In this document: piece by piece, positions 4,407-60,616 of the stretch | Numbering within the stretch: the stretch's first letter is position 1 | How the letters are laid out: the number at the start of each line of letters is the position of its first letter | Assembly (NCBI GenBank): GCA_944325305.1 | Contig: CALUZO010000016.1 | Coordinates: 18,856-82,855 of the forward strand | Length of the DNA: 64,000 nt | Direction of reading: 5' to 3' | Source: an uncultured Rikenellaceae bacterium | GTDB lineage: Bacteria; Bacteroidota; Bacteroidia; Bacteroidales; Rikenellaceae | The notes under the pieces: model-generated | The model's database searches: none | What the model saw: only the letters and a program-made list of their open reading frames with translations | What the model was told of the DNA's origin: nothing | Made by a program: the position numbers and the translations under genes

Positions 4407-4716
4407 ACATTTAACGGCAGTTCGATATGCTGACAGAAACATAAAACCATGAATCCGACCATGCAAGCACAGACTATGGCTCCAATAGCCGACAAGATTT
4501 TCGCATATTTACAGTTTCATTTTTACCTAATCTTTTGACAATACAGATCACTCACCGGGTCCCAACTAAACTTAGCGATCTCTCGGCCAAACATTATGTT
4601 TTAATCACATAGATGTTTCCATGAAATTTGTCAGACATAAGTCGGCACTATTGTCATGCAAATCATCTCATGTTCGTTTTCCCATCCCTTCCACATACAC
4701 TGCAAAGATGAATCTA

Positions 4717-4752
4717 TAAAAAAATCTCCCCGGCATGTAAAGCCGGGGAGAT
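4717..4752 (-). terminator. Intrinsic terminator downstream of galM
   Basis: 11-bp stem ATCTCCCCGGC / GCCGGGGAGAT, followed on the minus strand by a T-run. Confidence 0.7.
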
Positions 4753-4774
4753 CAAATGTAAAACAGCGCACCTC

Positions 4775-5923: not shown

Positions 5924-6168
5924 AAAAAAGTTGTATGTTGAGTTTGGTTAAATGTTTTTCCACGTAAATATACATGTAAAATTCCGTAACCGCAACGTAT
6001 ACAACCCGTTTTTTTGACCTTTTATGTGTTGATTAACTGCCGACGGGTTTCTTTTTTTCACATATCCGTGCACGACAGACACTATCTGTTTCCCATCCAC
6101 AGACAGTTATGCCATGCGGAAATCGGTTAATCCAACGCCCTTACCGTCATTATGATATTAACCGGCAT

Positions 6169-7563: not shown

Positions 7564-7591
7564 TCAACAATAAAACTCCCTCAGGTTCAGG

Positions 7592-8311
7592 CTATACAGG
7601 CCAGAACCGGGACAACACAACAGCCACCAGCAACGCCGGCAGCATATTAACCACATTCACCTCTTTCAGTTTCAAGATATTGATCCCGAGACCTATGAGC
7701 AATATTCCGCCGACGGCAGTCATATCGGCAACCATCATTTCGCTCATGTAACGCATCATGAATCCGGCAAATAGCGTCAGCGCCCCCTGATAGACAAGCA
7801 CGGTCAAAGACGAAAACAATATCGCCGCTCCGAACGACGAAGCAAGTGCAATGGACGATATGCCATCCATGATCGATTTGGTGAAAAAGAGATTGGGGGT
7901 CTGTCCAGAACCGTCTTCTATCGCACCCAATATAGACATCGACCCAACGCAAAACAGCATGGACGAGGTAATGAATCCCTCGGTAAAGCGCGAGGATCTC
8001 TCCTTGTCAACCACAACCGGACCTCCGGCTTTCAGTCCGCCGCCGCTCTTACGCTGGAGAAACGAGGAAAACTTCTCCAGTCCACGGTCTATACCCATCC
8101 ATTCGCCCAATATAGCGCCGATGACGACACTCACCACGGCCAGCAATATGTTGTCTGACTTGAGCGACATCGAGATCCCTATTCCCATGGTAACAAGGCC
8201 GATACCCTGGAATACGATATTGACCATTCGTTCCGGAAGCCGAGAATGGATCGACATTCCGATAAGACTGCCGACGATGACAGCTCCCGTATTTACAAGT
8301 GTTCCTAACAT
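7592..8311 (-). CDS. DUF554 family membrane protein (YdfK/YqgA-like)
   Basis: The N-terminus MLGTLVNTGAVIVGSLIG and a polytopic 239-aa layout are typical of DUF554 proteins. Recognised from memory of the family. Confidence 0.75.
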   Translation of the reverse strand: MLGTLVNTGAVIVGSLIGMSIHSRLPERMVNIVFQGIGLVTMGIGISMSLKSDNILLAVVSVVIGAILGEWMGIDRGLEKFSSFLQRKSGGGLKAGGPVVVDKERSSRFTEGFITSSMLFCVGSMSILGAIEDGSGQTPNLFFTKSIMDGISSIALASSFGAAILFSSLTVLVYQGALTLFAGFMMRYMSEMMVADMTAVGGILLIGLGINILKLKEVNVVNMLPALLVAVVLSRFWPV

Positions 8312-8750
8312 ATGCAGATTTTTTCATTTCGCCGACATGCCGAAAGCAATAGCTTCAGCCCGGTTTGGACATTAACTGCAAAGGTAACAATCAAAACCGG
8401 ACTTGCCATGCCGGCAGTAAGAAAAACGACACGTTTACCTTTCTGACATGCACATGGAGGACGTACGGGACATGTCAATACACCGCCGCCACACCGATCA
8501 CGATGCCTGCAACAGGATTACAGAACCACGACTCGCAAAACTTATTCTTTATCGACATTCAAGGCAATTACGTATTTGGAGCATCGGCAGCCGTCAGTCC
8601 ATGCATCGCAGGGAATCAATCCACCGACACCAATCAGTCCTCGGTACATACAGCGACAATATCATAGAGTGCAGACAACGCCACAATGCCTTACCGCATC
8701 AATACCAAAACATATATGCCACAAAACCATAAAGGAAGCATTTGAAAAAC

Positions 8751-46996: not shown

Positions 46997-47324
46997 CTGA
47001 AAAAAATTATGGGTTTAATATAATGTAAAAATAAAAAATAAAAGCCATTTGTCATCCAATTATAGCACTAATACAGACTTTAAGTCCAAACAAAAAAAGC
47101 TGAAAGAGTGCACTTTCTATATTTTTCAGACGTGTGCAGTATTATACACGGATTAATAAACAAAATATTATTTAACATTTAAACATCATATTAAGTCCTT
47201 TTTATAGTGCAATCAGCCACACGCAAAACGGAAAAACAAGAGCAATTATCAACATATAATACTAATTATCAAATACTTACATCACCAGAAAATTATACAT
47301 TTCCTGATTAAAAAATCAATGCTC

Positions 47325-47355
47325 TTGACATTCGATCAGTGTGATACTATATTTG
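47325..47355 (+). promoter_or_regulatory. Candidate promoter for the phage-like operon
   Basis: TTGACA (47325-47330), a 17-nt spacer, then TATATTTG (47348-47355). The latter also matches the Bacteroides -7 consensus TAnnTTTG. Lies about 200 nt upstream of the first ORF. Confidence 0.35.
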
Positions 47356-47550
47356 CCGAAGTGGGTAAATAGGGGTGGAGGTCCTTCTGCCCAGGCGTAG
47401 ATAGTGCCATAATTTCCGGAGATTATCAAAATGCTTCCAACACATTTTGTATTAACAGCAGGATGTCGACAAATTGTTTACAACCATGTAACATTCTGCG
47501 GCAGGCCCGAAAATCAGTACGTATTTAAGGCCGTATAAACCGGATTAATT

Positions 47551-47808
47551 ATGAAAAACAAGAGCGCAGCCGGCACCGGTATCACATGTGCCGAGACTCA
47601 AAAAAAGGTAGCCTCGAAAAGACAGAAAAACCTACTAATCGAACTCGAACAAGCAGAGGCTAACGTATCGAACCTATTCCAACAAACACTCGACGCAGTC
47701 GACAACCTCGCAAGAATCAGACTGAAATGCAAACTTTCCAATTCTCGCGTAGTCGGCGTTTACAGAGAATTAAAAGAACTGGGAAAAGTAATGTCTCTAT
47801 ACAAATAA
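47551..47808 (+). CDS. Hypothetical small protein (basic N-terminus, predicted coiled coil)
   Basis: 85-aa ORF with an ATG start, first in the island. No recognisable motif. Confidence 0.45.
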   Translation: MKNKSAAGTGITCAETQKKVASKRQKNLLIELEQAEANVSNLFQQTLDAVDNLARIRLKCKLSNSRVVGVYRELKELGKVMSLYK

Positions 47809-47825
47809 CCATATAAGCTCGGTTA

Positions 47826-47858
47826 TCAACATCAAATCAACATCAAATCAACAAAATT
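47826..47858. repeat. Tandem 11-bp repeat TCAACATCAAA, 2 perfect copies plus a partial third
   Basis: TCAACATCAAA TCAACATCAAA TCAACAAAATT, in the 142-bp gap between the first two island ORFs. Confidence 0.8.
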
Positions 47859-47950
47859 ATCAATAACGCACACAACAGCTTAACAGGCTGTTAAACGCAA
47901 GTTTACTAACCTTTCGAGCCAAACTGCTCTGAAATCAAAACCAATCAACA

Positions 47951-48370
47951 ATGCACAGAAATAACTTGACAGAGGCCGTCGCAGAGGCGGCCCAGGCTTG
48001 CGAACTATGCTTCCATAACGGATTCGAATACCAAATAAACGAAGCATTGCAAGAGACTCCCGCCTTGTGGCTATCATATCTCGAAGCCACCAAACATAAT
48101 GGCGTTAACGAAGGCGTCAGAACATACACCGCAAAAATGTTCATTATAGACATACCTCAAAAAAACATCGCAGAAAACCCGGAATCAACTTGGCTCCAAA
48201 TGGAGAAAAACGCCGCAAAAATATGCAGCCTGATAGCCGAAGCCGAATGTGTCAAAAACATATCAGATGTCGAATTCTCCGCAACAAAAAACAGCATCAC
48301 AAACCGAGGGGAAATTGCCATGCAGATAAAAATGAATATACATGTCCCATACATAAATCCTAAAAACTGA
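47951..48370 (+). CDS. Hypothetical phage-like protein (possible head-tail joining/completion protein)
   Basis: 139-aa ORF whose stop lies 4 nt before the next start. No family recognised. The role is guessed from context only. Confidence 0.5.
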   Translation: MHRNNLTEAVAEAAQACELCFHNGFEYQINEALQETPALWLSYLEATKHNGVNEGVRTYTAKMFIIDIPQKNIAENPESTWLQMEKNAAKICSLIAEAECVKNISDVEFSATKNSITNRGEIAMQIKMNIHVPYINPKN

Positions 48371-48374
48371 CACG

Positions 48375-49373
48375 ATGAACATAAAATCAATCCCTGAAAA
48401 CTATACGGGAGCATTGGCTCCTGTCGTCTTCCAGATATGGCAGGCAGATCCCGAAAATGCAATCACTGTACAGATAATTACCGGTCAGGAAGAACATATT
48501 GCCGGTGAAAAAATACTCTCAGGAGAAGACTCATACAGCGTAAACGTAGCAAACTATTGCAAAGGAGAAATAAATATCGAACCAATTACCGGCGAATGGT
48601 CAGTAATCGGAAACGCCATGCAAAGATGCTGCCCGGTCAGCATAAAGAGCGGAGAAACATCATCAACGAAAATTTACGTCACAGGGGGCCAAAAAGTTTG
48701 TCCGACAAAAAAAATACTATCAGATTCTCCGTCGAAACATCGCATATCGCCCGGCGATAAAGACGAAATAGCCATAATCGCTCCGGAAACCTCAATCTCG
48801 GTCAAGGCAAAACTCAACAACATATCGGATATGGCTGAAATCGAACTTGCCAACACCACTTGCAGTAACGGAGTATATGTAGTCTCGATCGATACGGAAC
48901 ACATAGAAACACTCCTCGAAAAGCCATTATGCGAATTCACGGAAATGACAGTGGAAATAAAAGAAGCTGATAACGTCCTGGCTAAAAGAGAATATCGAAT
49001 CGTTCCGACAACCAGTGATGCGGTAAGACTATGCTGGCAAAATCCGTACGGACAGATAGATTACCACACCTTCAATCTGGTTGAAGAAAAATTCAATGTC
49101 AGTAAAAACAAAATATATTTAAGCTCAGGTTACACAACAATTGGATTGACACAGGAAGTAGTAACTAGAGTCGTATCGGAATGCGAACCAAGCAAAACAG
49201 TCAAATGGCTCACAGAAATAATGTCGGCACCGCAAGTTTGGCTGGTCGCACAAGAGAAAATAGTAAAAATAGACATCCTCACCGACAACACATCATTCAG
49301 CAACACCCAACCGGGCAACATTAACCTCTCGTTCCGTAATGCCGCAGGCGGAAGAAATTTCATAAAAGCATAA
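48375..49373 (+). CDS. Hypothetical phage structural protein (tail/adaptor candidate)
   Basis: 332 aa, beta-rich. The C-terminal pattern RLCWQNPYGQIDYHTF...KWLTEIMSAPQVWLV resembles tail/baseplate proteins of Bacteroidota phages, from memory only. No nucleotide-binding motif. Confidence 0.55.
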   Translation: MNIKSIPENYTGALAPVVFQIWQADPENAITVQIITGQEEHIAGEKILSGEDSYSVNVANYCKGEINIEPITGEWSVIGNAMQRCCPVSIKSGETSSTKIYVTGGQKVCPTKKILSDSPSKHRISPGDKDEIAIIAPETSISVKAKLNNISDMAEIELANTTCSNGVYVVSIDTEHIETLLEKPLCEFTEMTVEIKEADNVLAKREYRIVPTTSDAVRLCWQNPYGQIDYHTFNLVEEKFNVSKNKIYLSSGYTTIGLTQEVVTRVVSECEPSKTVKWLTEIMSAPQVWLVAQEKIVKIDILTDNTSFSNTQPGNINLSFRNAAGGRNFIKA

Positions 49374-49375
49374 TA

Positions 49376-51850
49376 ATGAAACTATTTATAAACGAGATAG
49401 AAGCGGATATAAGTATCACTTCGCCAATAAAAATAACATTATGCATATCGGAAATAACCGACCCTGAAAAAGGACGTACAGGTTATTCATTACCATTCGT
49501 AATTCCGGCAACAGCAATAAACAGAAATATATTGGGACACTGTGCCGAACCAACTTCAACCGAAACGTTCAATCAAAAGCAATACTCCGCACGAATAGAA
49601 CAAAACGGATCTGTCATTATAAACGGCGAACTATATGTAATGTCATATACGGAATACAGCGATGGCAGCGGCGAATATTCCGTCGCAATCATTGGCCCAG
49701 GAAAAGAATGGGTCAGAAAAGCTGCTGCAACCCCGTTCCGTGAAATTGAAATAGATTTCGAAGAAACGATAACTCCAACAATGATTGGACAAAGCTGGAC
49801 GTGGAACAAACCAGTACGGTTCCTGCCGGTAGAAAGAGATTCGTTCGCCGTGGAAAACAACAACTCTCACCTGTTCCCTCCAGTCAAAATCCTGTCATTC
49901 GAGGATTACCATCCTTTCCTGCACGTACGTACAATATTCGAAGCAATCTTCGCAGCAGCAGGATACGGCATCCAATCAGAATTCATGAACAGCTCGATGT
50001 TCAATTCTCTGTATATGAGCGGAAATTATCCCCGCAAAAGCATTGACGGCGACAAATCCAAAATGGATTTCTTAGCCGGCAGGTTCACAGACGCTACAGC
50101 AACCGCAAACTCAAGCGGCAAAGTCTATGCCGACCCGATAACAAACCTCAACACGATAGGAAACATAGTGCAAACCGCAAATCCAAGAGAAGAAAACAAC
50201 GGAATTGTGCTGGAAAACGTATTCGCAAAAAACGATTGCTTCACAAAAATAGGCGACAGAATCGCTTTTGTCCCTACAAATAGCGTAGTCGTAGGTTTCG
50301 AGTTCAAAATACACTATACGGCCGATTACCATATGATCAGCAGAGACGAACTCAAAACATTCAACGAACTTTATCTCTGGTCGGGACAATCGAGAAACTA
50401 CAAAGTAATGAATACAAACAAGGATCGTCGCGAAGAATTCACAACCGGAAAAACTTTTATGGTTATCGTTTTCGACCACACCGATGGCGACTCTTACCAG
50501 TTCCGATACGACGAACTACTGAACGACCAGGTCGATCCCGAAAATCCCGGAGAAGGAGAAGTAACCACACGCACTTTCACATCTTTCAGCACACGTACAA
50601 AAAGCATAACTATCACCGGATCAAAACCAGTGACAAATCCACAAATATGGATCAAAACACAGGAAAGTTCATCATATGTCTTATGCGAAAAAGATTGGGC
50701 ACTATATGACGGCCATGTCACGGAAAACGGTGAAATCGAAGTGGAAATAACAGTGAGAAGCTCCCCGGAACGAATAATCCCATCCGACCCAAAATACTTC
50801 GACCAAATATATTTCGGCGGTGCAGATCCCGGAATGAAATTCACTCTCGGGAAAAGCACTACCATACGCCCACTATTCGCAGGCTATCCATGCGAAGGCT
50901 CGACAGTAAAATTCGAAGACGTGGCAGCACATGAAACATCGGCACTGGACTTTGTGAACGCAATCAGGCATATGTTCAACCTGACATTCGTAACCGATAA
51001 TCTCAAAAAAAAGGTTTATGTTGAACCACAAAAAGACTTCTATTGTCCAGAACCGATAATTGACTGGAGCAACAGAATAGATCTCTCAAAACCAATATGC
51101 GTGGGAGAACCCGGCGACGGTCTGTCTCAAATATATACCATGCGTTATCAAAGCGGAGACGGCGCCGTCTCCAGATGGAACAGACAGAACAGCGAACGAT
51201 TCGGAAGCTACAGCTGGAATATTCAGAGCAGATTCGCTAAAGATGGCGAAAGTGTATTCGAAAACCCTCTATTTACAGCATCTCTCAGCGTGGCAGGCAA
51301 TTTCCCCGATGCCCCTGCAGCAATTCTAACACAAGCAGGAGACAGAGAAACTGATATTACTCAGGATGTAGAAGAACTCAACTTCCCACCGAAAATAGTC
51401 AGATATCTCGGAATGGCAGAACTGCCAACATCACAAAAATGGGGATGGCCATCTTATGGAACAAACTATCCCTTCCTCGCATTCCACCACGATGGAGACA
51501 GCGCAGATATCACCGGAGTCGACAGCAACATCGACCAGAATGAACTACAAACAGATATGACAAACGGATTTTCGCTCTGTTTCGAAGACAGAGAATCTAC
51601 TACTGGCCTACACAAATTCTACGACAGAATATTCGAAACATATGACAACAGCAAAAAAGTCGAGGCCTACATCAATATCAAGCCTGAAGAAGTCGAATCA
51701 TTGCTTTGCCCGAACTCTCTCGGACGTGACTTCAGAGCACTCTACCGCCTCGTAATAGATGGCGAAAACGCCTTGTACAGACTTGAAGAATTATGCGATT
51801 ACAACCCGTCGGAACCGTCGGCTAAATGTGTATTTATTAAAGAATTATAA
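49376..51850 (+). CDS. Large hypothetical phage structural protein (tail tube-B/nozzle/fibre or receptor-binding candidate)
   Basis: 824 aa, starting 2 nt after the previous stop. Beta-rich, with no Walker A motif and not helical like a tape measure. Confidence 0.55.
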   Translation: MKLFINEIEADISITSPIKITLCISEITDPEKGRTGYSLPFVIPATAINRNILGHCAEPTSTETFNQKQYSARIEQNGSVIINGELYVMSYTEYSDGSGEYSVAIIGPGKEWVRKAAATPFREIEIDFEETITPTMIGQSWTWNKPVRFLPVERDSFAVENNNSHLFPPVKILSFEDYHPFLHVRTIFEAIFAAAGYGIQSEFMNSSMFNSLYMSGNYPRKSIDGDKSKMDFLAGRFTDATATANSSGKVYADPITNLNTIGNIVQTANPREENNGIVLENVFAKNDCFTKIGDRIAFVPTNSVVVGFEFKIHYTADYHMISRDELKTFNELYLWSGQSRNYKVMNTNKDRREEFTTGKTFMVIVFDHTDGDSYQFRYDELLNDQVDPENPGEGEVTTRTFTSFSTRTKSITITGSKPVTNPQIWIKTQESSSYVLCEKDWALYDGHVTENGEIEVEITVRSSPERIIPSDPKYFDQIYFGGADPGMKFTLGKSTTIRPLFAGYPCEGSTVKFEDVAAHETSALDFVNAIRHMFNLTFVTDNLKKKVYVEPQKDFYCPEPIIDWSNRIDLSKPICVGEPGDGLSQIYTMRYQSGDGAVSRWNRQNSERFGSYSWNIQSRFAKDGESVFENPLFTASLSVAGNFPDAPAAILTQAGDRETDITQDVEELNFPPKIVRYLGMAELPTSQKWGWPSYGTNYPFLAFHHDGDSADITGVDSNIDQNELQTDMTNGFSLCFEDRESTTGLHKFYDRIFETYDNSKKVEAYINIKPEEVESLLCPNSLGRDFRALYRLVIDGENALYRLEELCDYNPSEPSAKCVFIKEL

Positions 51851-51853
51851 ACT

Positions 51854-52012
51854 ATGGGAGATAATTATATCCAGGAAAACACAACATTAACCCAGGATGA
51901 AATAGAAAAAATCGTGCGTGAATACTTGGAAAAAAACATAACGGGCAATACTGCTAAAACCATAGAAGAACTTAGAATTATCGAAAAAATCATTGAACAG
52001 GCAACATTCTAA
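51854..52012 (+). CDS. Small hypothetical protein (52 aa, acidic, helical)
   Basis: Not in the ORF track because it is under 60 aa. The ATG lies 3 nt after the 824-aa gene's stop. Translation is MGDNYIQENTTLTQDEIEKIVREYLEKNITGNTAKTIEELRIIEKIIEQATF. The tight packing suggests a real gene. Confidence 0.4.
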   Translation: MGDNYIQENTTLTQDEIEKIVREYLEKNITGNTAKTIEELRIIEKIIEQATF

Positions 52013-52023
52013 ACCACAACAAA

Positions 52024-52293
52024 ATGACAATTTATGTGAAAGAACTGCTCCTTATGCTCGACAAAAAATACGGAGCATTATCTCCGGGAGAAATGGCGGA
52101 TAAACTGTTCGAAATTGGAGTGGTGGACCACACCTTATGCAAAGTACTGGCTGTAAGGGAATTCGTAGCCGCAAAAGTGAAAACCGGCGAAAAAAAAATC
52201 GACGCTATGTGGGCAGCCGCAGAACACTTTTGCTGTACATATGAATACATACGCAAATGTGTTTATTACTACACGGATGTAAATCTCGATTAA
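52024..52293 (+). CDS. Small putative DNA-binding protein (Mor/HTH-like C-terminus)
   Basis: 89 aa. The C-terminal KIDAMWAAAEHFCCTYEYIRKCVYYY resembles the HTH end of Mor-type phage late activators or small DNA-binding packaging proteins. This is a weak, pattern-only call. Confidence 0.4.
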   Translation: MTIYVKELLLMLDKKYGALSPGEMADKLFEIGVVDHTLCKVLAVREFVAAKVKTGEKKIDAMWAAAEHFCCTYEYIRKCVYYYTDVNLD

Positions 52294-52425
52294 TTCAAAA
52301 ATAAGATAAACTTTTTGCCCGCCCATCACAGTAATTTAGCGTCATAGACGTCGACAAGGTCCAAAAACAATATCCTCAAACTACAACCGGCAGGACCTAA
52401 TTCTCAAACAAATAACTCACACAAA

Positions 52426-53394
52426 ATGTCTGGAAAAATAACGATCTCGAATACGGCTGAAAATGTTGCCGTAATAGACATAGAAGGTATTATCGGAGTA
52501 CCCGAAAACCAACAATTCGACGAAACACCATACAGCGTCGCAACTTACGGAACCTTCAAAGAAGAAATAGCAAAAATCAAAAACAACACCAAACAGGAAA
52601 TTATAGTCAATATCCGTTCGACGGGCGGTAACGTCAACGATGCTCTGCTGATATACGACTTGCTGAAAGAACTCGACGCAAAAATAACCACAAAGTGTTT
52701 CGGTTATGTGGCATCCGCTGCAACTATCATAGCCCAAGCCGCATCGCCCGGAAACAGAGAAATATCGGCAAACTCGCTTTACCTTATACACAAGGCAGCA
52801 TGCAGCACCGAAGGAAATGCAAACACTATTGCTCAAACTATCGAAATGCTCGACAAAACCGATAAAAGAATCACCGCGATATACGCGGAACGCTCCGGAA
52901 AACGTGAAGCAGTGTTTGAAAAACTAATGGCGGAAAACAACGGCAACGGAAGATGGTTGTCGCCAGAAGAAGCTATCGAATACGGCCTGGCAGATAAAAT
53001 TGTCGCCGCCACACCAATTAATGCCGCTTCACGAAATATGGTCGTCGACCTGGGACTCCCTCCAATCCCCAAAAAACGAAAAAACATGATACGGGAAATA
53101 TCGGAAACATGGAACCGAATACTCCGATCTGCAGGTATCACACACGTCAATGACGACAATGCGCATAATAAAACAAACGATTCGAAAATCTTGGACGCCA
53201 ATATCCTCGAAAATGCAGCTCGTGAAGTACTGAACGCACGCGCCCAAAAAGAAAAACAAAAACTCGAAATCGAAACTGCAAGGGCTGCTGCCATGCCAAC
53301 ATCTACAAAACCAAAAGAAGACCCCGCAATACAAGAAGTACACCCCTCTGCTAACGAATACGCATATATGGAAGACCTGCGAGGATTTATCTAA
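52426..53394 (+). CDS. ClpP-like (S14) prohead protease with C-terminal scaffold-like extension
   Basis: ClpP-family core IVNIRSTGGNVNDALLIYDLLKELDAKITTKCFGYVASAATIIAQAAS...SLYLIHKA. The C-terminal about 120 aa are charged and helical (NARAQKEKQKLEIETARAAA). Confidence 0.75.
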   Translation: MSGKITISNTAENVAVIDIEGIIGVPENQQFDETPYSVATYGTFKEEIAKIKNNTKQEIIVNIRSTGGNVNDALLIYDLLKELDAKITTKCFGYVASAATIIAQAASPGNREISANSLYLIHKAACSTEGNANTIAQTIEMLDKTDKRITAIYAERSGKREAVFEKLMAENNGNGRWLSPEEAIEYGLADKIVAATPINAASRNMVVDLGLPPIPKKRKNMIREISETWNRILRSAGITHVNDDNAHNKTNDSKILDANILENAAREVLNARAQKEKQKLEIETARAAAMPTSTKPKEDPAIQEVHPSANEYAYMEDLRGFI

Positions 53395-53522
53395 AACCAA
53401 AACAGGTGCGCATATGACGGGCAAGAAAACGGCAACATTACATATAAATACAATTCAGCGTTACGACACCCAGAATTAACCCGCACCTATACTTCTTAAT
53501 ACAAACACATAAAACAAACAAA

Positions 53523-54512
53523 ATGAGCAAAATCGAAGCACCTAAAACCTACCAGGGCGCGGATCTCGAAAATATCTTCTTCCGCCCAATGTTCACAGGC
53601 CCGGACGCACAAGACCTCGGAATAAGGATAATGTACAACATGCCTGTCCCGACAACACTGCAATTCTGGAAACGCAGCGGCGACATTCTCCACAAATATA
53701 CCTCAAGCGGATGGAAAGGCGGTACTGCAGCCAGCAGATACTCGAAACAAATCACTCTGTCGAAAGTAAAAGCAGAAGCAAGCTACAGCGCATCGGATTA
53801 TTTCAACATGGTATATGAAGTAATAACAAACCGCAGCGATGTAAACCTGCAGGACCTCTCTGGCACCGAACTCGAAGAAGCTGAAACCGCCCTGTTCAAA
53901 GAAGCTATCGCCGAAAGTATTCGCGCTACAATGTGGCTCGGAGATACAGCACGCTCCAGCTCATCGGCTCAGTACAATACTTTCGACGGCTTCCTGATCC
54001 GCATTATGACCGACATAAGCCTCGGAGAAACGGATATCAAACAGACATCATTCACCGACAGCACAAAACCGGCCAGCGCAGAAGCCATACTCAAAGGCCT
54101 ATGGGACAATGCCTCTACATCACTCAAGGACTGTAAATCACAGGGAAACCTCGTATACCTGGTAACATCAGATATCTACAACGATTATGAAGAAGCTCTC
54201 GACAGCGTCGTCGTAGAAAGCGCCTACCTCGCAAAACAGAACGGCAGGCAAGGAATATCGTACAGGGGTATCCCGGTAATCGACCTGCAACTGTCTGCAT
54301 ATCTCCCATCGTTTACCAGTCTCCCTCAGACTTTCGGTATACTTACGGACCGACGCAACCTGGCTCTTGCCGTAAATACGAAAGACTTCCCAGGAACCGA
54401 GGTCAAGATGTGGTACAACCCAGACCTTATGCAAAACCGTCAAAGAGCCGTATTCATGGCCGGATGCGACTACCTGTTGCCTGAACTCATCTCATTCACA
54501 TACAAATCTTAA
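53523..54512 (+). CDS. Major capsid protein candidate (HK97-fold type inferred)
   Basis: 329 aa, directly downstream of the protease/scaffold gene. Size and mixed alpha/beta pattern are compatible with P2-gpN or lambda-gpE-like capsid proteins. Not verified by search. Confidence 0.6.
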   Translation: MSKIEAPKTYQGADLENIFFRPMFTGPDAQDLGIRIMYNMPVPTTLQFWKRSGDILHKYTSSGWKGGTAASRYSKQITLSKVKAEASYSASDYFNMVYEVITNRSDVNLQDLSGTELEEAETALFKEAIAESIRATMWLGDTARSSSSAQYNTFDGFLIRIMTDISLGETDIKQTSFTDSTKPASAEAILKGLWDNASTSLKDCKSQGNLVYLVTSDIYNDYEEALDSVVVESAYLAKQNGRQGISYRGIPVIDLQLSAYLPSFTSLPQTFGILTDRRNLALAVNTKDFPGTEVKMWYNPDLMQNRQRAVFMAGCDYLLPELISFTYKS

Positions 54513-54523
54513 CACAAACCGAT

Positions 54524-55042
54524 ATGACACTCGGAGGATATGAAAAAAGCACAGGTAAGCGAAGCGGCGGAATACGTTCGATAGCTCTGACATCAGTAAG
54601 CGATATAACCGGCGTGGAAACCAACAACGCATCAGGAATCTGTACCGGCATCTCCTTTGTCGAAAACGGCGGATTCGGCACATACGAATTCATGGAAGGA
54701 GAAGCATCATATACGGAAGAAATATCGATCGCAGATGGAGTGACTGAAGTGAAACACGAAATCCAGTTCGCCATTGAAAGACCGGACAATGAAAGTGCAA
54801 AAACGATAAGTGAACTCCTGAAAACATCGCGGGAAGGAATTGTCGCAATCGTTACAACCAACAGCAACGTTTCATTCCTCGTCGGGTATAGCGACAAATT
54901 CGGCACAGAACAACCCTTGCGCCTCGAAAAGGCCAAAATGTCGACAGGGAGCAATCCCGCAAACAATACCACTGAAATCATAACTCTCGTCTCTCGAGAT
55001 GACTGCAAATCAATGGTATACAACGACAGCACAGCCGTTTAA
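54524..55042 (+). CDS. Hypothetical beta-rich phage protein (tube, decoration or completion protein candidate)
   Basis: 172-aa ORF 11 nt after the capsid gene and followed by a strong hairpin. No motif recognised. Confidence 0.5.
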   Translation: MTLGGYEKSTGKRSGGIRSIALTSVSDITGVETNNASGICTGISFVENGGFGTYEFMEGEASYTEEISIADGVTEVKHEIQFAIERPDNESAKTISELLKTSREGIVAIVTTNSNVSFLVGYSDKFGTEQPLRLEKAKMSTGSNPANNTTEIITLVSRDDCKSMVYNDSTAV

Positions 55043-55063
55043 TCATAAGCTAATCTATGGACC

Positions 55064-55097
55064 GGAGGGCTGTCAGTCTCAGGGCAGACAGCCCTCC
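55064..55097 (+). terminator. Internal terminator/attenuator-like hairpin between the capsid module and the portal gene
   Basis: Perfect 11-bp GC-rich stem GGAGGGCTGTC / GACAGCCCTCC with a 12-nt loop, followed by TTTTAAATTT. Confidence 0.6.
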
Positions 55098-55113
55098 TTT
55101 TAAATTTCTGAGA

Positions 55114-56343
55114 ATGAAAACAAACAACAATATCAATAAATACAAAGTCTTCAGCGTCGAAAATGCCGCAGACCCTTTCATGAGGATAGGAACAGTCAAA
55201 AGTACAGACAGCAAGTTCTGGCGATGGGGCGACGACAATATGTTTCCATACGCCCTTGCGATTATGGCCCGCAGAAGCACCACTCACAGACGCATAATGA
55301 ACGACAAGGCCGACTATATCGCAGGTAAAGGATTCACTTTCGACCCAGACCTCCCGGCATTGGGAAAATTCGTCGAATCGGTAAACGGAAAAGGAGAATC
55401 CATGAGGCAACTAATAAACAAACTCGCATTCGACAAGGCGCTTTTCGGCAACGCATTCGTAGAGATAGTTACCGATCCCAAAAGATCGTTTCTATCGCTC
55501 TTTCACCAGGATGCAAGCAAATGCAGAGTGGCCAAAGACAACTCTCATATCATAATGCATCACGATTGGGCACGTTTCTCGGCTAAAGACCAGAAAACAC
55601 TCCCGCTATACCCAAACTTCGAACAGCAAGAAGACGGTACACTGAGATCAATCATACATTACAAAGACTATGAACCAATGTTCGAAAATTATGGCATCCC
55701 GTCATATATAGCAGGAATGAATGTGTCTGCAATAGCCTACAAAACAGACAAATGGAACATAAGCAGACTTGACAACTCGTTTCAACTATCAGGTGTAATG
55801 GTTCTCGACGGAACGGTAGACAACGAAGCAGAAGCAAACGACATCATGAAAACAGCACAAAAAAAATTCGCCGGACAACCCGGACAAGTAATGTTCATGA
55901 TAAAAGACTGCTCGGAAAACGACAGTTCAAAGTTCATCCCCATAGATTCAAAAAACGAAGGTGATTGGAAAGAACTTCACGACCAGGCAACGGCCGACAT
56001 AGTTGTAGCTCACTCATGGTTCCGTTCGCTGAGCGGACTCGATTATGGCACAGGATTCAGTTCGGAAAGAATATTGCACGAATACGAAATAGCTCTAAAT
56101 ACCATAATACTCGCAGAACAGGAAGAATTGATGGAACCGCTGCGAAAAGTAATGGAACTTATCCTCGCCGTGGATTGTTCATCCCTACAGATAGTCAACA
56201 GACCACCTACCCGTTCGAAACCACTGTATATGAAAGTATGGGAAGCCCGCAAAGCAGACGGATTGGAATATGACCCGGAAGACCCCGAACAGCAACTGTT
56301 CGTGGCACAAATAACAAAATACGCATTGAAAAACATAGACTAA
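55114..56343 (+). CDS. Phage portal protein candidate
   Basis: About 410 aa. The N-terminal WRWGDDNMFPYALAIMARRSTTHRRIMNDKADYIAGKGF and the later FRSLSGLDYGTGFSSERILHEYEIALNTIILAEQEEL resemble PBSX-type portal proteins. The ATG at 55114 is preferred because the 55057 start would span the hairpin. Confidence 0.6.
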   Translation: MKTNNNINKYKVFSVENAADPFMRIGTVKSTDSKFWRWGDDNMFPYALAIMARRSTTHRRIMNDKADYIAGKGFTFDPDLPALGKFVESVNGKGESMRQLINKLAFDKALFGNAFVEIVTDPKRSFLSLFHQDASKCRVAKDNSHIIMHHDWARFSAKDQKTLPLYPNFEQQEDGTLRSIIHYKDYEPMFENYGIPSYIAGMNVSAIAYKTDKWNISRLDNSFQLSGVMVLDGTVDNEAEANDIMKTAQKKFAGQPGQVMFMIKDCSENDSSKFIPIDSKNEGDWKELHDQATADIVVAHSWFRSLSGLDYGTGFSSERILHEYEIALNTIILAEQEELMEPLRKVMELILAVDCSSLQIVNRPPTRSKPLYMKVWEARKADGLEYDPEDPEQQLFVAQITKYALKNID

Positions 56344-56355
56344 CACTTCGCAGTA

Positions 56356-56820
56356 ATGGAACTTATCATAACACCACAGGAAGTCGTAGAAATGGCTTTC
56401 GAAGGGGAATACGGAATAACACCGGAAAGAATCGGCAATAACGTCATCGCATCGGCACAGCAAAAATTCATAAAACCAGTGCTGGGAGATCTGTTCGACA
56501 AACTGGAAGACGACTCTTCGTACCCGGAACTTAAAGAATTGGTCAAGGCTGCCCTTGCCCAATATGTCAAATTACTGATGATCCCGAAACTGGCTGTCTC
56601 AATGGGCAACGGAGGAATAACTCAGATCAAAGGAACACATTTCGCTTCCGCCAACGAAGAAAGCATCAAGGCCCTCAAAGAAAACACCAAAGCCGAAGCG
56701 TGTGCATTGATGCGCGAAGTGGTGGAACATATAGAACAAAACAGAGAGGATTACCCGGAATATAACCCGGCCGACAATATACTGCACAAAGTCTCGATAT
56801 GCTCGGGAATAATTCTTTAG
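56356..56820 (+). CDS. Hypothetical phage protein (head-tail connector/adaptor candidate)
   Basis: 154 aa, helical. The N-terminal pattern IITPQEVVEMAF...IASAQQKFIKPVLG is reminiscent of gp6-like connector proteins. Context-based call. Confidence 0.45.
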   Translation: MELIITPQEVVEMAFEGEYGITPERIGNNVIASAQQKFIKPVLGDLFDKLEDDSSYPELKELVKAALAQYVKLLMIPKLAVSMGNGGITQIKGTHFASANEESIKALKENTKAEACALMREVVEHIEQNREDYPEYNPADNILHKVSICSGIIL

Positions 56821-56824
56821 AGCC

Positions 56825-57253
56825 ATGGAAACCATACTCAAATACTGTTCCGGTGGAATTATGGCTGTTTTGTCGATACTCGCTCCCATACAAGGGCTTA
56901 TAATCTGCGCCGTGATATTCATAGCCATAGATTTCGTCACAGGAGTGACTGCAAGTTACAAAAAAGCACAGCGCAACGGCGGAGTTTGGGCATTCGAAAG
57001 CGAAAAGGCGTGGAATACCGTCACCAAACTTGCGTTCGTGATGGCAGGCATTGTACTCGCGTGGCTCATAGATTTCTGCATACTTGACTTTATGAACTTA
57101 CGGCTAGCAAACATCTTTACCGGATTCGTGTGCGGAGTGGAATTCTGGAGTTACCTCGAAAATGCCGCCGACATATCGGACCACCCGCTGTTCAGAAAAC
57201 TGGGCAGACTAATCAAAAAACAAATTGATAAAAAAATCGACCCGGAAAATTAA
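56825..57253 (+). CDS. Phage holin family protein (Phage_holin_4_1-like)
   Basis: Multi-TM 142 aa with FIAIDFVTGV...SEKAWNTVTKL...GVEFWSYLENAA, matching the holin family pattern (D-x-x-TG ... E-x-x-S-x-x-EN). Confidence 0.8.
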   Translation: METILKYCSGGIMAVLSILAPIQGLIICAVIFIAIDFVTGVTASYKKAQRNGGVWAFESEKAWNTVTKLAFVMAGIVLAWLIDFCILDFMNLRLANIFTGFVCGVEFWSYLENAADISDHPLFRKLGRLIKKQIDKKIDPEN

Positions 57254-57258
57254 CAACC

Positions 57259-57669
57259 ATGAGCATAGGCCTCGACAATAACAATCCCGGCAACATAAGA
57301 CTGTCGGCAACCAAATACCTGGGAGAGGTTCAACTCTCACAAAACAAGTCTTTCAAACAATTCAAATCAATGGCATGGGGATACAGAGCCATATTCGTAC
57401 TGCTACACACGTATAACATACGATATGGCCTAAGGAATATAGAAAGAATAATAAACCGATATGCTCCACCTACCGAAAACGATACAGAACGATATATTTC
57501 ATTCGTTTCATACCGCAGCGGTATTCCTCGCGACAAACCAATAGATACACTATCTGCAAACGACATGATCCCGATTGTCACCGCAATAAGCAGAATGGAA
57601 AACGGAGTGGAAGCCGTATCGGAGGATGTTAATGCCGGCTGGGAACTTTTCATAAAACACAAACCATAG
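57259..57669 (+). CDS. Putative muralytic protein/endolysin (phi6 P5-like 'structural protein' family)
   Basis: NNPGNIR motif, then FKQFKSMAWGYRAIFVLLHTY and RYAPPTENDTERYISFV. This is the pattern of the family annotated as structural protein P5 in Bacteroidota prophages. Sits immediately after the holin. Confidence 0.65.
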   Translation: MSIGLDNNNPGNIRLSATKYLGEVQLSQNKSFKQFKSMAWGYRAIFVLLHTYNIRYGLRNIERIINRYAPPTENDTERYISFVSYRSGIPRDKPIDTLSANDMIPIVTAISRMENGVEAVSEDVNAGWELFIKHKP

Positions 57670-57673
57670 AATC

Positions 57674-58273
57674 ATGAAACTATCTGCATATTTTATCCCG
57701 TATGCGGTACTGTCACTCGCCGCGATTATCCTAACCGTATCTTGGGGAGCATCGCAAAAACGCGAAAAACAACGACTCGAAACAAACCAGTCTACGTTAC
57801 TCGAAAAAGAACGCCGATATAAACTGAGAGACAGCCTGAATGCAGTTTCGATCGGAGTTCTCACGCTTAAAACCGCTGAATTCGCCGAACATTTCTCCGT
57901 AATGGAAGATATGATAAAAGAGATGGGGGTGAAACTAAAACGTATTGAAAACATATCTCAAAACGCTATTCAATCCAATTATAAGATAACAACACCTCTC
58001 CGGGATACCATAGTCATTATCGACTCCTCGACAGTTAAAAACGGATTATCATTACAATACCGAGACCCATGGATCGAGCTGAAAGGGACCATATTAAATA
58101 ACCGGTTTACTGGTTCGATCGTAAGCTACGACACGCTCATCCAAGTCGTACACCGAGTTCCAAGACGCTTCCTGTTTTTCCGTTTCGGAACAAAAGAACT
58201 CAGGCAAGAAATCGTTTCATCCAACCCGAATACACAACTCACATACAGTCGTAATCTGAAAATAGCAAAATAA
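57674..58273 (+). CDS. N-terminally membrane-anchored coiled-coil protein (spanin-like / DUF6549-like)
   Basis: TM helix YFIPYAVLSLAAIILTVSW, then a charged coiled coil (KREKQRLETNQSTLLEKERRYKL). Last gene of the lysis cassette. Confidence 0.55.
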   Translation: MKLSAYFIPYAVLSLAAIILTVSWGASQKREKQRLETNQSTLLEKERRYKLRDSLNAVSIGVLTLKTAEFAEHFSVMEDMIKEMGVKLKRIENISQNAIQSNYKITTPLRDTIVIIDSSTVKNGLSLQYRDPWIELKGTILNNRFTGSIVSYDTLIQVVHRVPRRFLFFRFGTKELRQEIVSSNPNTQLTYSRNLKIAK

Positions 58274-58283
58274 AATGTATGAC

Positions 58284-58329
58284 ATAAATGTTGCCGGACA
58301 CCCATTAATGGGTGTCCGGCAACATTTAT
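58284..58329. terminator. Strong hairpin closing the phage-like island (possibly a bidirectional terminator)
   Basis: Perfect 20-bp stem ATAAATGTTGCCGGACACCC / GGGTGTCCGGCAACATTTAT with a 6-nt loop, 10 nt after the last island stop codon. Convergent with the prolyl oligopeptidase gene. Confidence 0.75.
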
Positions 58330-58531
58330 ACACATACAATAATCCTCAAAAAAGTGTTTCAGAACACACTGAAAGCATTATCCCCTTCACCATATTATTT
58401 CGGCATATAGCAATTCACCAAATCAATTCACAAATCCAAATGCAAGGCTTGTCCGTCAATCATAATTCAAAATCTAAAATTCCTCACGACAATCAAACAA
58501 CACACTCAAACGCCATATCATGTAACATAAA

Positions 58532-60616
58532 TTACAATTTAAAGACGGTTCCCGTATTTTGAAATATGAAACTGTAAACATCTGTTTGTTCGGCAATACG
58601 CTTAGAGGTAGGTTTCCCGGCTCCATGTCCGGCATCCCGTTCGATACGTATCAATACAGGTTTCCCGCATCCCTGCGCACGTTGCAACGCCGCTGCAAAC
58701 TTGAACGAATGGGCAGGAACAACCCTGTCATCATGTTCGGCAGTCGTAACAAACGTCGCCGGATAACAAACCCCATCGCGAACATTATGCAGGGGTGAGT
58801 ACCTGTACAGATAACGGAACTGATCCGGATCTTCGGCACTGCCGTATTCAACGACCCATCCCCACCCTATCGTAAAACGATGATACCTTAACATATCGAG
58901 AACGCCGACCTGCGGCACAGCAACGGCAAACAGATCAGGCCTCTGCGTCATGCAGGCTCCAACAAGCAGTCCGCCGTTGGAGCCTCCCATTATAGCCAAT
59001 TTATCCGACGAAGTATAACCTTCCGCAATAAGGTACTCGGCGGCGGCAATGAAGTCGTCAAATACATTCTGCTTTTGCGCGAGCATTCCGGCATGGTGCC
59101 ATCTCTCTCCGTACTCGCCGCCGCCTCTGAGTGTCACGTCTACGAAAACGCCCCCCTGCTCCAACAACATTATAACCGCCGGATTGAACGCCGGCGTATG
59201 ACTTATATTGAAACCGCCATATCCGCACATGACCAGCAGATTGCGCCCGTTGCGAGACATATCTTTACGGTGCGTCACGAACATAGGCACTCGCGTCCCG
59301 TCAAAACTCTCGAAAAACAACTGCTCGGTAACATAAGCTCCCCCATCGAAGCCCGTTTCGCTGCGAGACACCAATGAAGACAAACCTGTCTCAAGCTCAT
59401 ACCTGTAAACAGCCGCAGGTGACGTGTATGTTGTTAGCGCATAAAACGTCTCTTTGTCGTCTGCCCCTCCAGTGAAACCTGCAGAAGTACACAGGCCGTC
59501 GAATGCCACATTTCTCACGAATCTTCCCTCCATGTCGAACTGCCAAACCGCACTTACGGCATTTTCGAGATAAGTGGCCATCAGGTAGCCACCCACTGCC
59601 GACACACTTTCCAGAGGAGCGTCGATGCGTTCCCGGACAACATCAGTAAAAGATTTCGCCGAACTGAGAAGATCGACTGCAATTACCTTGAAATTTGGCG
59701 CATCCCTGTTCGTCATCAGGAACAACCTATCTTCGTTGGCATAAACGATCTCGTAATCATGCTCGAATCCGGGCATGAGCACCTCGAAACCGCCAGTCAC
59801 ATCGTCTTTTCGTCGGAACAATATCTCCGCCCCGTGCGTACCCTCCGAACCATGCACAAAAATCCAACGTCCGTCATGGCTCTCGGAACCGTGAAAATAG
59901 CGCAAGGGATGTTCGTCATCGGCATATATCAGCACGTCGTCCTGCTGTGCATGCCCTATCTTGTGATAAAAAACCTTATGGAATCTGTTCTGCCCCGAGT
60001 ACTCGTCTCCGTTAGCAGGAGCATCGTAGGCACTGTAATAGAAACCGGAGGAATCGGCGTCCCACGATGGTATGGAAAATTTGACCCATCGTATTATGTC
60101 ATTAAGCAACATGCCATTCCCCGTTTCGACAATCCTTATTTCAGCCCAGTCGGAACCGGATGCCGAAACGGAATAAGCGCAATACCTGCCGTCGTCTGAA
60201 AAAGAGAGGCCGTTCAGGGCCACCGTACCGTCATCCGACAACGTATTCGGATCGAGAAACACTTCGGCTGCCGACCCTATTGTACGTGAGCGGTATATCA
60301 CCGACTGATTACGAAGACCGTCGTTACGAGCGAAATAATACCACCCGCCTTTTTTTTGCGGTATGCCCTCTTTCGGATAATCCCACAGTTCGGTCAGTCT
60401 CTCGCGTATTTTTTCACGGAATGGGATACCGACCAGATATCTTTCGGTCAGTTCATTCTGAGCCGAGACCCACGCTGCGGTATCCGGCGAGCAGTCGTCC
60501 TCGAGCCACCGGTACGGATCTCCAACCAATACGCCGTGATAATCATCGGCAATATCCTCCATACGGGTCGGAGGATATTTGAAATTAGTATTTTCCATAA
60601 ACTGCTTTGATAACAT
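58532..60616 (-). CDS. Prolyl oligopeptidase family serine peptidase (S9A)
   Basis: N-terminus YPPTRMEDIADDYHGVLVGDPYRWLED, a beta-propeller region, catalytic GGSNGGLL (GxSxGG), and DDRV and GHG near the C-terminus. Confidence 0.92.
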   Translation of the reverse strand: MLSKQFMENTNFKYPPTRMEDIADDYHGVLVGDPYRWLEDDCSPDTAAWVSAQNELTERYLVGIPFREKIRERLTELWDYPKEGIPQKKGGWYYFARNDGLRNQSVIYRSRTIGSAAEVFLDPNTLSDDGTVALNGLSFSDDGRYCAYSVSASGSDWAEIRIVETGNGMLLNDIIRWVKFSIPSWDADSSGFYYSAYDAPANGDEYSGQNRFHKVFYHKIGHAQQDDVLIYADDEHPLRYFHGSESHDGRWIFVHGSEGTHGAEILFRRKDDVTGGFEVLMPGFEHDYEIVYANEDRLFLMTNRDAPNFKVIAVDLLSSAKSFTDVVRERIDAPLESVSAVGGYLMATYLENAVSAVWQFDMEGRFVRNVAFDGLCTSAGFTGGADDKETFYALTTYTSPAAVYRYELETGLSSLVSRSETGFDGGAYVTEQLFFESFDGTRVPMFVTHRKDMSRNGRNLLVMCGYGGFNISHTPAFNPAVIMLLEQGGVFVDVTLRGGGEYGERWHHAGMLAQKQNVFDDFIAAAEYLIAEGYTSSDKLAIMGGSNGGLLVGACMTQRPDLFAVAVPQVGVLDMLRYHRFTIGWGWVVEYGSAEDPDQFRYLYRYSPLHNVRDGVCYPATFVTTAEHDDRVVPAHSFKFAAALQRAQGCGKPVLIRIERDAGHGAGKPTSKRIAEQTDVYSFIFQNTGTVFKL

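Follow-up and report, generated by a model that had tools for sequence, protein, structure and literature searches.

What keeps a block of phage structural genes intact in a bacterial chromosome when no gene for packaging, integrating or replicating DNA is recognised beside it? The question is raised by a locus in the 64,000-nucleotide stretch of DNA analysed here (the window; positions 18,856 to 82,855 of contig CALUZO010000016.1, assembly GCA_944325305.1, from an uncultured Rikenellaceae bacterium). In this window, 14 real co-directional genes on the + strand, all intact by open reading frame (ORF) listing and translation, span positions 47551-58273. Family searches and modelling identify among their products a prohead protease/scaffold, a capsid, a portal, a tail-hub protein, a holin, a muralytic enzyme and a spanin-like protein. 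A sequence-only reading of the window had described a head, tail and lysis island of about 11 kb without terminase, integrase, replication or repressor genes, and had considered a domesticated particle resembling a gene transfer agent (GTA) with its packaging functions encoded elsewhere, a helper-dependent satellite, or a novel small virus. Our searches with PHROGs and Pfam, with a hidden Markov model (HMM) of the large terminase subunit TerL and with tblastn bear out the description. The first of the three explanations fits best: the chromosomes of related species carry an orphan TerL gene, maintained by selection, beside a gene for an S24-type repressor. We therefore favour, as somewhat better than an even bet, a domesticated, GTA-like particle system (a viriform) that is spread over several loci and probably under SOS control. 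The island has the genomic traits of one, with no replication, integration or excision genes of its own, vertical inheritance, purifying selection and conservation across a wide clade. On its genes, it is a strong candidate for the first GTA-like particle in the Bacteroidota.

GTAs are documented in a handful of lineages, none of them in the Bacteroidota according to the literature searched, and a gut example, from Faecalibacterium, appeared only in 2026. The full-text literature searched likewise describes no GTA-like element of Alistipes or other Rikenellaceae. If our reading is true, capsid-based gene exchange, programmed lysis or killing would take place in a family that is among the most abundant of the gut. 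The interest of the island stems from its breadth (283 species), from the importance of its host family, since Alistipes, Tidjanibacter and their relatives are major gut commensals, and from its testability in isolates: cultured strains carry it (e.g. Alistipes hominis), so that the hypothesis can be put to the test directly. The split architecture, with an orphan terminase beside an autocleavable repressor, offers a testable control point. IMG/VR and GenBank at present label such islands as prophages or as viral contigs.

Conservation of the island and its chromosomal site

Fifteen co-directional + strand ORFs separated by short gaps were listed at 47551-58562. None of the 15 matched a terminase, integrase, excisionase, replication (initiator or primase) or repressor family in PHROGs or Pfam, and a regular-expression search found no Walker A motif in any product, as had been noted from the sequence. 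Neither an HMM built on 120 TerL sequences and run against the six-frame translation of the 64 kb window, nor tblastn of the window with the TerL and the small terminase subunit (TerS) of the related phage described below, returned a match. Terminase, replication and lysogeny modules are absent from the island and from its 64 kb surroundings, which sets it apart from an intact phage or prophage; the homologous islands that we sampled are likewise without replication, integration and excision genes. Housekeeping genes abut both ends, in agreement with the core-gene flanks described before: the left neighbour encodes a PRK-family kinase, and prolyl oligopeptidase, dapD and birA follow at the right end. 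There is no tRNA gene in the window and no flanking direct or att-like repeat around the island, whose GC content is slightly lower (0.439) than that of the rest of the window (0.476). Three other assemblies of the host species have the same locus with all genes intact, at 99.85-99.9% nucleotide identity.

The distribution of the island was surveyed with one genome per GTDB species. Capsid relatives were found in 283 species-level genomes, and architecture and intactness were assessed on the best 80 of these 283 loci. The best 80 genomes are all Rikenellaceae (Alistipes, Tidjanibacter and further genera) and have a common gene order, (orf1)-orf2-orf3-orf4-small ORF-orf6-protease-capsid-orf9-portal-DUF6712, followed in many loci by orf12-orf14. 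The best 120 capsid homologs, 65-100% identical, come from Rikenellaceae or Alistipes where a name is given; the contigs that carry them reach 2.2 Mb in length. In a neighbour-joining (NJ) tree of the capsids, the groups loosely follow host labels. The ratio of nonsynonymous to synonymous substitution rates (dN/dS; Nei-Gojobori medians over 16 species pairs) is 0.06-0.27 across all island genes, with dS ranging from 0.2 to more than 1, and intactness, scored for each gene as stop-free copies among the loci scored, is 93-100%. Divergence is much faster in the tail-tip genes orf3 and orf4 than in those of the head.

The place of the island in the chromosome is conserved as well. At least 19 species-level genomes have it next to rnhB, 15 of them with a TMEM260-like gene adjacent too, and further clade-wide groups of 12, 9 and 5 loci are defined by other right flanks. 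The host lineage of the window has its own, different site, between the kinase and the peptidase genes, which is partly common to relatives L003 and L026. In L026 (positions 1-9083 of a Rikenellaceae metagenome-assembled genome, MAG), birA and prolyl oligopeptidase lie to the left of the island and not to its right. The 6.3 kb that separate these two genes from the protease gene of L026 have no detectable similarity to orf2-orf4; its tail module may have been replaced.

We infer from these comparisons that the island is chromosomally fixed, vertically inherited and under purifying selection. Retention under selection had been proposed on the strength of the clean operon structure, together with a comparison of synteny and dN/dS across relatives; that comparison, with its conserved sites, low dN/dS and near-complete intactness across 80 species, speaks for selection and does not bear out neutral evolution.

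Copies of the island in viral collections were also considered. A search of the GenBank phage collection gave no nucleotide match, and its two protein-level matches, both unannotated scaffolds, are island fragments and do not speak for a free virus. These two, L001 (MT838805.1) and L002 (MT838736.1), are scaffolds labelled 'Bacteriophage sp.' from a human faecal sample, with 64% GC; L001 runs into the host genes for ComEC and a THUMP-type methyltransferase, and both scaffolds are chromosomal DNA carrying a phage label. The island copies in viral databases that could be checked end in host genes.

A related phage and an orphan terminase module

A temperate phage carrying the same module still circulates. 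About 15 near-identical IMG/VR contigs of 25-44 kb, for instance IMGVR_UViG_3300000279_000005 (about 44 kb, human gut), have homologs, in island order, of orf2, orf3, orf4, the protease, the capsid (409 aa), orf9, the portal and the DUF6712 protein, at 25-68% identity; the capsids of island and phage are 61-68% identical and the portals about 65%. The phage gene order is integrase ... TerS-TerL-p312-orf2-neck-orf3-orf4-p1070 ... protease-capsid-orf9-portal-DUF6712-fibres. Its TerS matches phrog_606 (1e-34) and its TerL phrog_38 (4.6e-102), and it also carries an integrase, an antirepressor, an S24 CI-like repressor, an HNH protein, RecT, an exonuclease, a DnaC-like loader and a methyltransferase. 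Its further proteins include a 312-aa protein (p312), a Neck1-like protein, a 1070-aa tape-measure-like protein (p1070) and a 1352-aa fibre.

Set beside this living phage, the islands reveal both losses and gains. They are without everything 5' of the phage orf2 (some Alistipes keep the 312-aa gene), including integrase, replication genes and TerS, and have kept neither neck protein nor fibres and next to nothing of p1070; orf1, orf6 and a small ORF of 94-99 aa, described below, have no counterpart in the phage. The island would then descend from a temperate phage of this still-circulating type. The sequence-only reading had allowed that close relatives might carry the genes within a normal 35-45 kb prophage, of which this copy would be a deletion derivative. 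A 44 kb phage with the module does exist, but at 61-68% identity it is not a close one, and the island is therefore better described as a family-wide fixed form than as a recent deletion derivative.

Searches with the phage TerL uncover more than 7900 homologs, which are about 60% identical to it. In all four of the genomic homologs that we sampled, an S24 repressor gene is divergent from an ORF of 94-99 aa, which is followed by a TerL gene of 476-479 aa. The repressor consists of HTH_3 and Peptidase_S24 domains with a GDSM motif and is CI/LexA-like. The neighbours of this orphan module are housekeeping genes (e.g. argR, yidC, CTP synthase, proS, PFOR, thioredoxins). A metagenome scan yielded at least 584 TerL stretches of this type, of which 80 loci were retained; the repressor and the small ORF were both present in 59 of the 62 loci with enough upstream DNA, and phage-specific or island genes occurred within 10 kb in none of the 80. 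The orphan TerL is full length (phrog_38, 1.9e-92), with ATPase and nuclease parts, and is intact in 80 of 80 loci. Median dN/dS values are 0.13 for TerL, 0.06 for the S24 repressor and 0.26 for the small ORF.

Two lines of evidence connect the orphan module with the island. Orphan and phage TerL, at 61-63% identity, stand as far apart as the capsids and portals of island and phage do. In addition, there are cases in which both lie on the same contig, although TerL stands within 10 kb of the capsid gene in just 2 of the 80 species and is absent there in the other 78. L072 has the full module a few kb from the island, in the order TerL(-) small(-) S24(+) ... rnhB island, and L044 a TerL homolog alone at the left contig edge. 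In L028 and L083-85, the S24 gene and the small ORF lie 6-7 kb 3' of the island with no TerL seen there; the next gene in L083 is a 173-aa ORF unrelated to TerL. The arrangement in L044 (positions 1-5000, a 'Tidjanibacter' MAG of 67% GC) is unlike the usual orphan module, with a + strand TerL homolog followed by a 742-aa ORF, 5' of the island.

The small ORF of 94-99 aa has no PDB or PHROG match, and the idea that it is a truncated TerS was rejected after negative BLAST and hhalign comparisons (hhalign probability 0.3). Nor do we claim the S24 repressor of the orphan module as an ortholog of the phage CI, to which it is only 25% identical over the protease domain. The intergenic region of the TerL module (L133 9462-9608, L135, L136, L137, L072, L083 and L028) contains a conserved palindrome, TTTG-N5-CAAA, which overlaps the -7 box and is followed by ACAAAGTTAAGCAATTTAT. 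The palindrome may serve the S24 repressor as its operator; no copy of it was seen at the island promoter. About 5 kb 5' of the orphan module in L135, an Alistipes MAG, a lone DUF6549 gene (4063-4665), homologous to orf14, stands among housekeeping genes, and lysis genes appear to be dispersed in some lineages.

Proposed working and alternatives

If the two loci form one particle system, DNA damage or another signal would remove the autocleavable S24 repressor and allow expression of TerL and the small ORF. The island operon, with its putative promoter near 47325-47355, would be turned on, possibly via orf1, orf6 or the small ORF. The protease/scaffold, capsid and portal proteins would build proheads, into which TerL, working without a sequence-specific TerS, would load host DNA by headful packaging. 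The DUF6712 protein, orf9 and orf2-orf4 would add a very short tail with a Tal-like hub at its end, and the holin, the muralytic enzyme and the DUF6549 protein would lyse the producer cell and release the particles. Domestication would have removed the integrase, the replication genes, TerS, the neck, the fibres and nearly all of p1070, and split TerL off into a small locus of its own. A head with a very short tail is, speculatively, the most economical picture of the particle, and a stub of a tape measure fits it. That the two loci work together, that they are under SOS control, that the particles contain DNA and that they transfer it is what we infer; the particles may deliver DNA, as a true GTA does, or act otherwise, for example by killing like PBSX. 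A more specific version, to which we give somewhat less than even chances, is an ancient, independently domesticated GTA of the Rikenellaceae, the first in the Bacteroidota, encoded in two loci (the head, short-tail and lysis operon and an SOS-responsive TerL module), with a tape measure stub of a few dozen residues and TerS lost. On induction, a subpopulation of cells would lyse, and the released particles would carry chromosomal fragments taken at random, to be exchanged among members of the family.

Several observations weigh against a GTA-like system. No part of the TerL module, be it TerL, its repressor or the small ORF, lies in the 64 kb window, and the module is linked to the island by homology in relatives. 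No TerS was identified; a tail tube and a full tape measure were not recognised, and orf2, orf3, orf9 and orf11 have no recognised fold. An operator common to the promoters of the TerL module and of the island was not found, and co-regulation of the two loci is therefore conjecture. Gene content varies by clade, with the protease, the p312-like gene and the lysis cassette present in some and absent from others, and nonsense mutations occur sporadically (orf3 in A. hominis New-7, the portal gene in L070). The NJ tree nests the phage capsids, as one clade, inside the diversity of the island capsids, so that they do not form a plain outgroup; there could have been gene exchange between phage and islands in place of a single old domestication. 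Lastly, in a long-read study of packaged DNA from three human guts, Rikenellaceae were abundant in total DNA but accounted for 0 of 25 GTA-like events (PMC12946183).

This last result would also make sense if the island had been domesticated for a role other than DNA transfer: as a PBSX-like killer particle, as a decoy interfering with the assembly of related phages, or for programmed lysis, the S24-TerL pair then being an unrelated SOS-induced nuclease/ATPase. Purifying selection reveals that there is a function, not which one; the much faster divergence of orf3 and orf4 relative to the head genes is as expected for target recognition or an arms race; and the failure to find a TerS points the same way. 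Only DNA packaging, however, requires a portal and a TerL that is intact over its full length, ATPase and nuclease alike, and TerL, capsid and portal are equally diverged from the same phage lineage. The sheath and tube of killer particles are missing, no such family being among the PHROGs or Pfam matches of the island ORFs, and the complete lysis cassette suits particle release. We regard a non-transfer role as unlikely, if the best placed of the alternatives.

A little less likely still is a helper-dependent element, which would rely on a superinfecting or co-resident related phage for TerS/TerL, neck and fibres, or serve the phage as a recombination partner and store of spare parts, the orphan TerL module being separate. 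A complete temperate phage with homologous structural genes is at hand, it carries the neck, fibre and TerS genes that the island is without, and the nesting of its capsid clade is compatible with module exchange. Yet genes for an integrase, an excisionase, a replication initiator and a primase are all missing from the island, and its chromosomal site is fixed across many species without att-like repeats, which together disfavour the satellite explanation offered before; nor are there Rep or AlpA/Stl-type genes or a tRNA, as in satellites of the PICI (phage-inducible chromosomal island), capsid-forming PICI (cf-PICI) or P4-like type. The island is found in 283 species, the phage as one narrow cluster of near-identical contigs. 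The hosts themselves maintain an orphan TerL of matching divergence, and mixed assembly of island and phage proteins is doubtful at 61-68% identity.

That the island is an inert remnant, left when a normal prophage recently suffered deletions and still awaiting decay, is very improbable. The related 44 kb temperate phage, the few copies with nonsense mutations and the GC difference from the rest of the window speak for such an origin. Against it, the same truncated architecture recurs in at least 80 species with capsid identities of 59-85%, recent horizontal copying is excluded by dS values of 0.2 to more than 1, and the site is conserved over deep divergence. A decaying prophage would not combine near-universal intactness, dN/dS far below 1 in all genes and family-wide spread; breadth, low dN/dS, intactness and conserved site together lead us to exclude a recent, decaying remnant. 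A novel autonomous virus of about 11 kb with unrecognised packaging and replication can practically be dismissed: although the operon forms a compact, self-contained unit that brings along a putative promoter and terminator as well as lysis genes, it lacks genes for replication and integration, shows neither ends nor repeats, stands at a fixed site by the same host genes in many species, ends in host genes in the viral-database copies checked and has homologs in a conventional TerL-using phage, and the orphan TerL of relatives makes an unrecognised packaging mechanism unnecessary.

Island genes and known particle systems

The island operon probably has one promoter and one terminator, both predicted. 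A promoter-like site on the + strand (47325-47355; TTGACA-17-TATATT, overlapping a Bacteroidetes-type -7 box TAnnTTTG, TATATTTG), whose function is deduced from its form, scores 11/12 in a consensus scan, and the motif is also conserved 5' of the island in L003 and L083. Between it and orf1 lies a + strand leader of about 195 nt (47356-47550) that shares conserved blocks with the closest relative (L003 2590-2788) and may contain a site of antitermination or act as a regulatory RNA; an Rfam scan of the leader and island matched no family. At the other end, a perfect palindrome of 23+23 nt (58284-58329; 100% complementary, no spacer), between the orf14 stop codon and the convergent peptidase gene, is probably a bidirectional terminator ending the operon. 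The sequence-only reading had counted fifteen intact co-directional ORFs. Co-directionality and intactness stand, but the fifteenth (58275-58562) is spurious, because it overlies the palindrome and the 3' end of the peptidase gene and has no homolog in the closest relative, which leaves 14 genes. That reading's identification of a ClpP-like protease/scaffold, capsid, portal, holin and muralytic protein is supported by the PHROGs and Pfam matches given below; all genes are on the + strand.

The first genes encode tail proteins and small island-specific proteins. orf1 (47551-47808; 85 aa) is a small basic/coiled-coil protein without a PHROGs or Pfam family; its homologs open the island in other species at 35-62% identity and are missing from the related phage loci, and it is a possible island-specific regulator. 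orf2 (47951-48370; 139 aa), a virion or tail protein common to the island and the phage, is conserved in 37 of 39 loci (dN/dS 0.14). Its phage homolog sits between TerL/p312 and the Neck1/tail-completion gene, and a sequence-profile search of the PDB gave no match. The same search gave none for orf3 (48375-49373; 332 aa), a fast-evolving tail protein found in 58 of 62 loci at 20-48% identity (dN/dS 0.19); lying directly 5' of the hub gene, it would by position be a distal tail protein. In the cultured isolate Alistipes hominis New-7 (L029 5302-6282), the orf3 homolog has a nonsense codon at position 30, while the near-identical L090 is intact.

orf4 (49376-51850; 824 aa) is the putative tail-tip or baseplate-hub (Tal-like) protein. 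A sequence-profile search of the PDB gave nothing usable, and the assignment comes from an AlphaFold2 (AF2) model of good quality (pLDDT 88.6, pTM 0.86) searched with Foldseek against the PDB. The N-terminal part matches baseplate-hub and tail-tip proteins: the monocin tip 9j1k_L (probability 0.99), Listeria gp18 3gs9 (0.97), Mu gp44 1wru (0.96), MuSo2 3cdd and VgrG. On this model we are confident of a tail-hub fold. Full-length matches to orf4 occur among uncultured Caudovirales proteins, down to E = 6e-43; it is intact in 62 of 62 loci, with 30-73% identity across species and dN/dS of 0.18.

The ORF 3' of orf4 varies from 52 to 262 aa across species (e.g. L083 8495-9283), orf5 (51854-52012; 52 aa) being a short, degenerate member of the family. 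The conserved C-terminus of the family, LKVYVLESDITEAQ.AVK.VV.QA[ST]F, matches that of p1070 (L091 3602-6814), IKVHVVEKDITKTQKKV, and p1070 has a match to a tape measure family (phrog_20660, 3.7e-30). A direct BLAST comparison of orf5 with p1070 gives no significant match, the link emerging via the longer family members, and we keep only as a low-confidence idea that orf5 is a remnant of p1070; the family may be a 'mini tape measure'. The claim that the island has no tape measure thus stands for a full-length protein, but it overlooked this C-terminal motif. orf6 (52024-52293; 89 aa) is the most conserved small island protein (96% identity to L003, 30-74% to others; dN/dS 0.08). It is island-specific, with no counterpart in phage-type loci and no Pfam or PDB match, and is possibly DNA-binding.

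The head genes follow. orf7 (52426-53394; 322 aa) is a ClpP-type prohead (head maturation) protease (phrog_94, 3.5e-47; PF00574, 1.7e-32) with a scaffold-like C-terminal tail of about 120 aa and a protease dN/dS of 0.10. In one Alistipes clade (L083, L025, L028, L029 and L066) the ClpP domain is gone and a 104-aa ORF keeps the last 40 aa; in L083 (9644-9958), this ORF is 47.5% identical to orf7 residues 283-322 (E = 3e-7). The capsid of this clade is 414 aa long, with an additional C-terminal Ig-like domain. Loss of ClpP with the scaffold tail kept, like the shrinking of the tape-measure-like protein to a C-terminal motif that is conserved, looks like functional remodelling, not decay.

orf8 (53523-54512; 329 aa) is the putative major capsid protein, HK97-like (phrog_1623, 8.7e-8). 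It has 1680 detectable homologs, some of them with a C-terminal Ig-like domain; distant members of the family match phrog_1623 and one matches a major-head family. It is intact in 78 of 78 loci, with 59-85% identity across species and dN/dS of 0.08. A sequence-profile search of the PDB gave nothing usable and the AF2 model is poor (pLDDT 50, from an alignment of 20 sequences, all more than 65% identical), but Foldseek matches of this model are almost exclusively HK97-fold capsids or encapsulins, with weak E-values. These weak but consistent matches and the gene context give us moderate confidence in an HK97-like capsid. Between capsid and portal, orf9 (54524-55042; 172 aa) encodes a conserved virion protein present in most loci and in the related phage (dN/dS 0.27), with no match in a profile search of the PDB.

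orf10 (55057-56343) encodes the portal (phrog_11226, 4.6e-24; PF04860, 4.8e-10, at its cut-off), whose true start is probably the second Met codon, at 55114. Identity is 57-86% across species and dN/dS 0.06, and the gene is intact in all scored loci but one, internal stops being found only in L070. Portal "pseudogenes" in four MAGs were rejected as an alignment artefact: the stops lie 5' of the true start and appeared because the over-long N-terminus of the window's ORF had been aligned. orf11 (56356-56820; 154 aa; DUF6712, PF20459, 2e-13) is intact in 70 of 70 loci (dN/dS 0.14), also stands 3' of the portal gene in the phage and is, by its position, probably a head-completion or adaptor protein.

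The lysis genes close the operon. orf12 (56825-57253; 142 aa) encodes a holin (PF05105, 2.2e-11; phrog_199, 6e-8) that is intact in 50 of 50 loci (dN/dS 0.08), and orf13 (57259-57669; 136 aa) a muralytic enzyme with an endolysin-type domain (phrog_873, 3.4e-39; dN/dS 0.07). The product of orf14 (57674-58273; 199 aa) is a DUF6549 protein with an N-terminal transmembrane segment (PF20186, 9.3e-53; phrog_14010, 7.3e-46), presumably a spanin-like lysis accessory.

How does this set of genes compare with known phage-derived particles? A capsid, a protease and a portal set the island apart from tailocins and contractile injection systems, with which just the hub fold is in common, and its portal, tail-hub and lysis genes set it apart from encapsulins. 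Closest in kind are the GTAs. RcGTA of the Alphaproteobacteria (Rhodogtaviriformidae) is likewise a phage-derived head and tail cluster without integration or replication genes, vertically inherited under purifying selection; its genes are spread over several chromosomal loci, with lysis genes in the system and a main cluster of about 11-15 kb. As in the Rikenellaceae, there is no evident sequence-specific small terminase (PMC12946183, and established knowledge). The layout is inverted: TerS and TerL head the main cluster of RcGTA and lysis is encoded elsewhere, whereas the island has lysis inside and TerL elsewhere. CtrA, GafA and quorum sensing govern RcGTA, whereas the candidate controller of the Rikenellaceae system is the S24 CI/LexA-like repressor beside TerL. 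There is no sequence homology implying a common origin with RcGTA, which argues for independent domestication in the Bacteroidota.

FpGTA of Faecalibacterium, called the first GTA-like element of the human gut microbiome, resembles the island in its gut host, its small operon and its lack of replication genes: an operon of about 10.5 kb encodes a portal, a scaffold, a capsid and a few tail proteins, is near-ubiquitous in the genus and specifies a short-tailed particle (PMC12946183; Nat Commun 2026). It differs in having TerS-like and TerL genes inside the operon and a host in the Bacillota (PMC12946183). RcGTA activity has been demonstrated experimentally, and FpGTA particles with 8.4-8.9 kb of packaged host DNA have been directly observed (PMC12946183), whereas the evidence for the Rikenellaceae system is its genes.

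PBSX-like elements of Bacillus are fixed, SOS- or repressor-controlled phage-derived particles that package host DNA and lyse the producer, a parallel that would hold for the island under the working proposed above. PBSX packages 13.4 kb (PMC12946183). It forms one cluster, about 28 kb long, that includes a terminase, has a contractile tail and acts as a killer, whereas the island is without sheath and tube genes and its TerL is separate. PBSX is under Xre control. VSH-1 of Brachyspira (Brachygtaviriformidae) is a head, tail and lysis cluster of about 16 kb that has no replication or integration genes and is inducible by DNA damage; it differs from the island in its unrelated lineage, its longer tail module and its demonstrated transfer of 7.5 kb fragments. 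cf-PICIs, too, are small chromosomal islands with their own protease, capsid, portal and connectors and not a full virion, but they are mobile and carry an integrase, AlpA, primase/replication genes and TerS (and terminase/HNH), none of which is found in the island with its fixed site. The candidate particle system of the Rikenellaceae would thus be distinct from RcGTA, FpGTA, PBSX and VSH-1 in its detached TerL paired with an S24 repressor, in the lysis genes lying within its structural operon and in its independent origin in the Bacteroidota.

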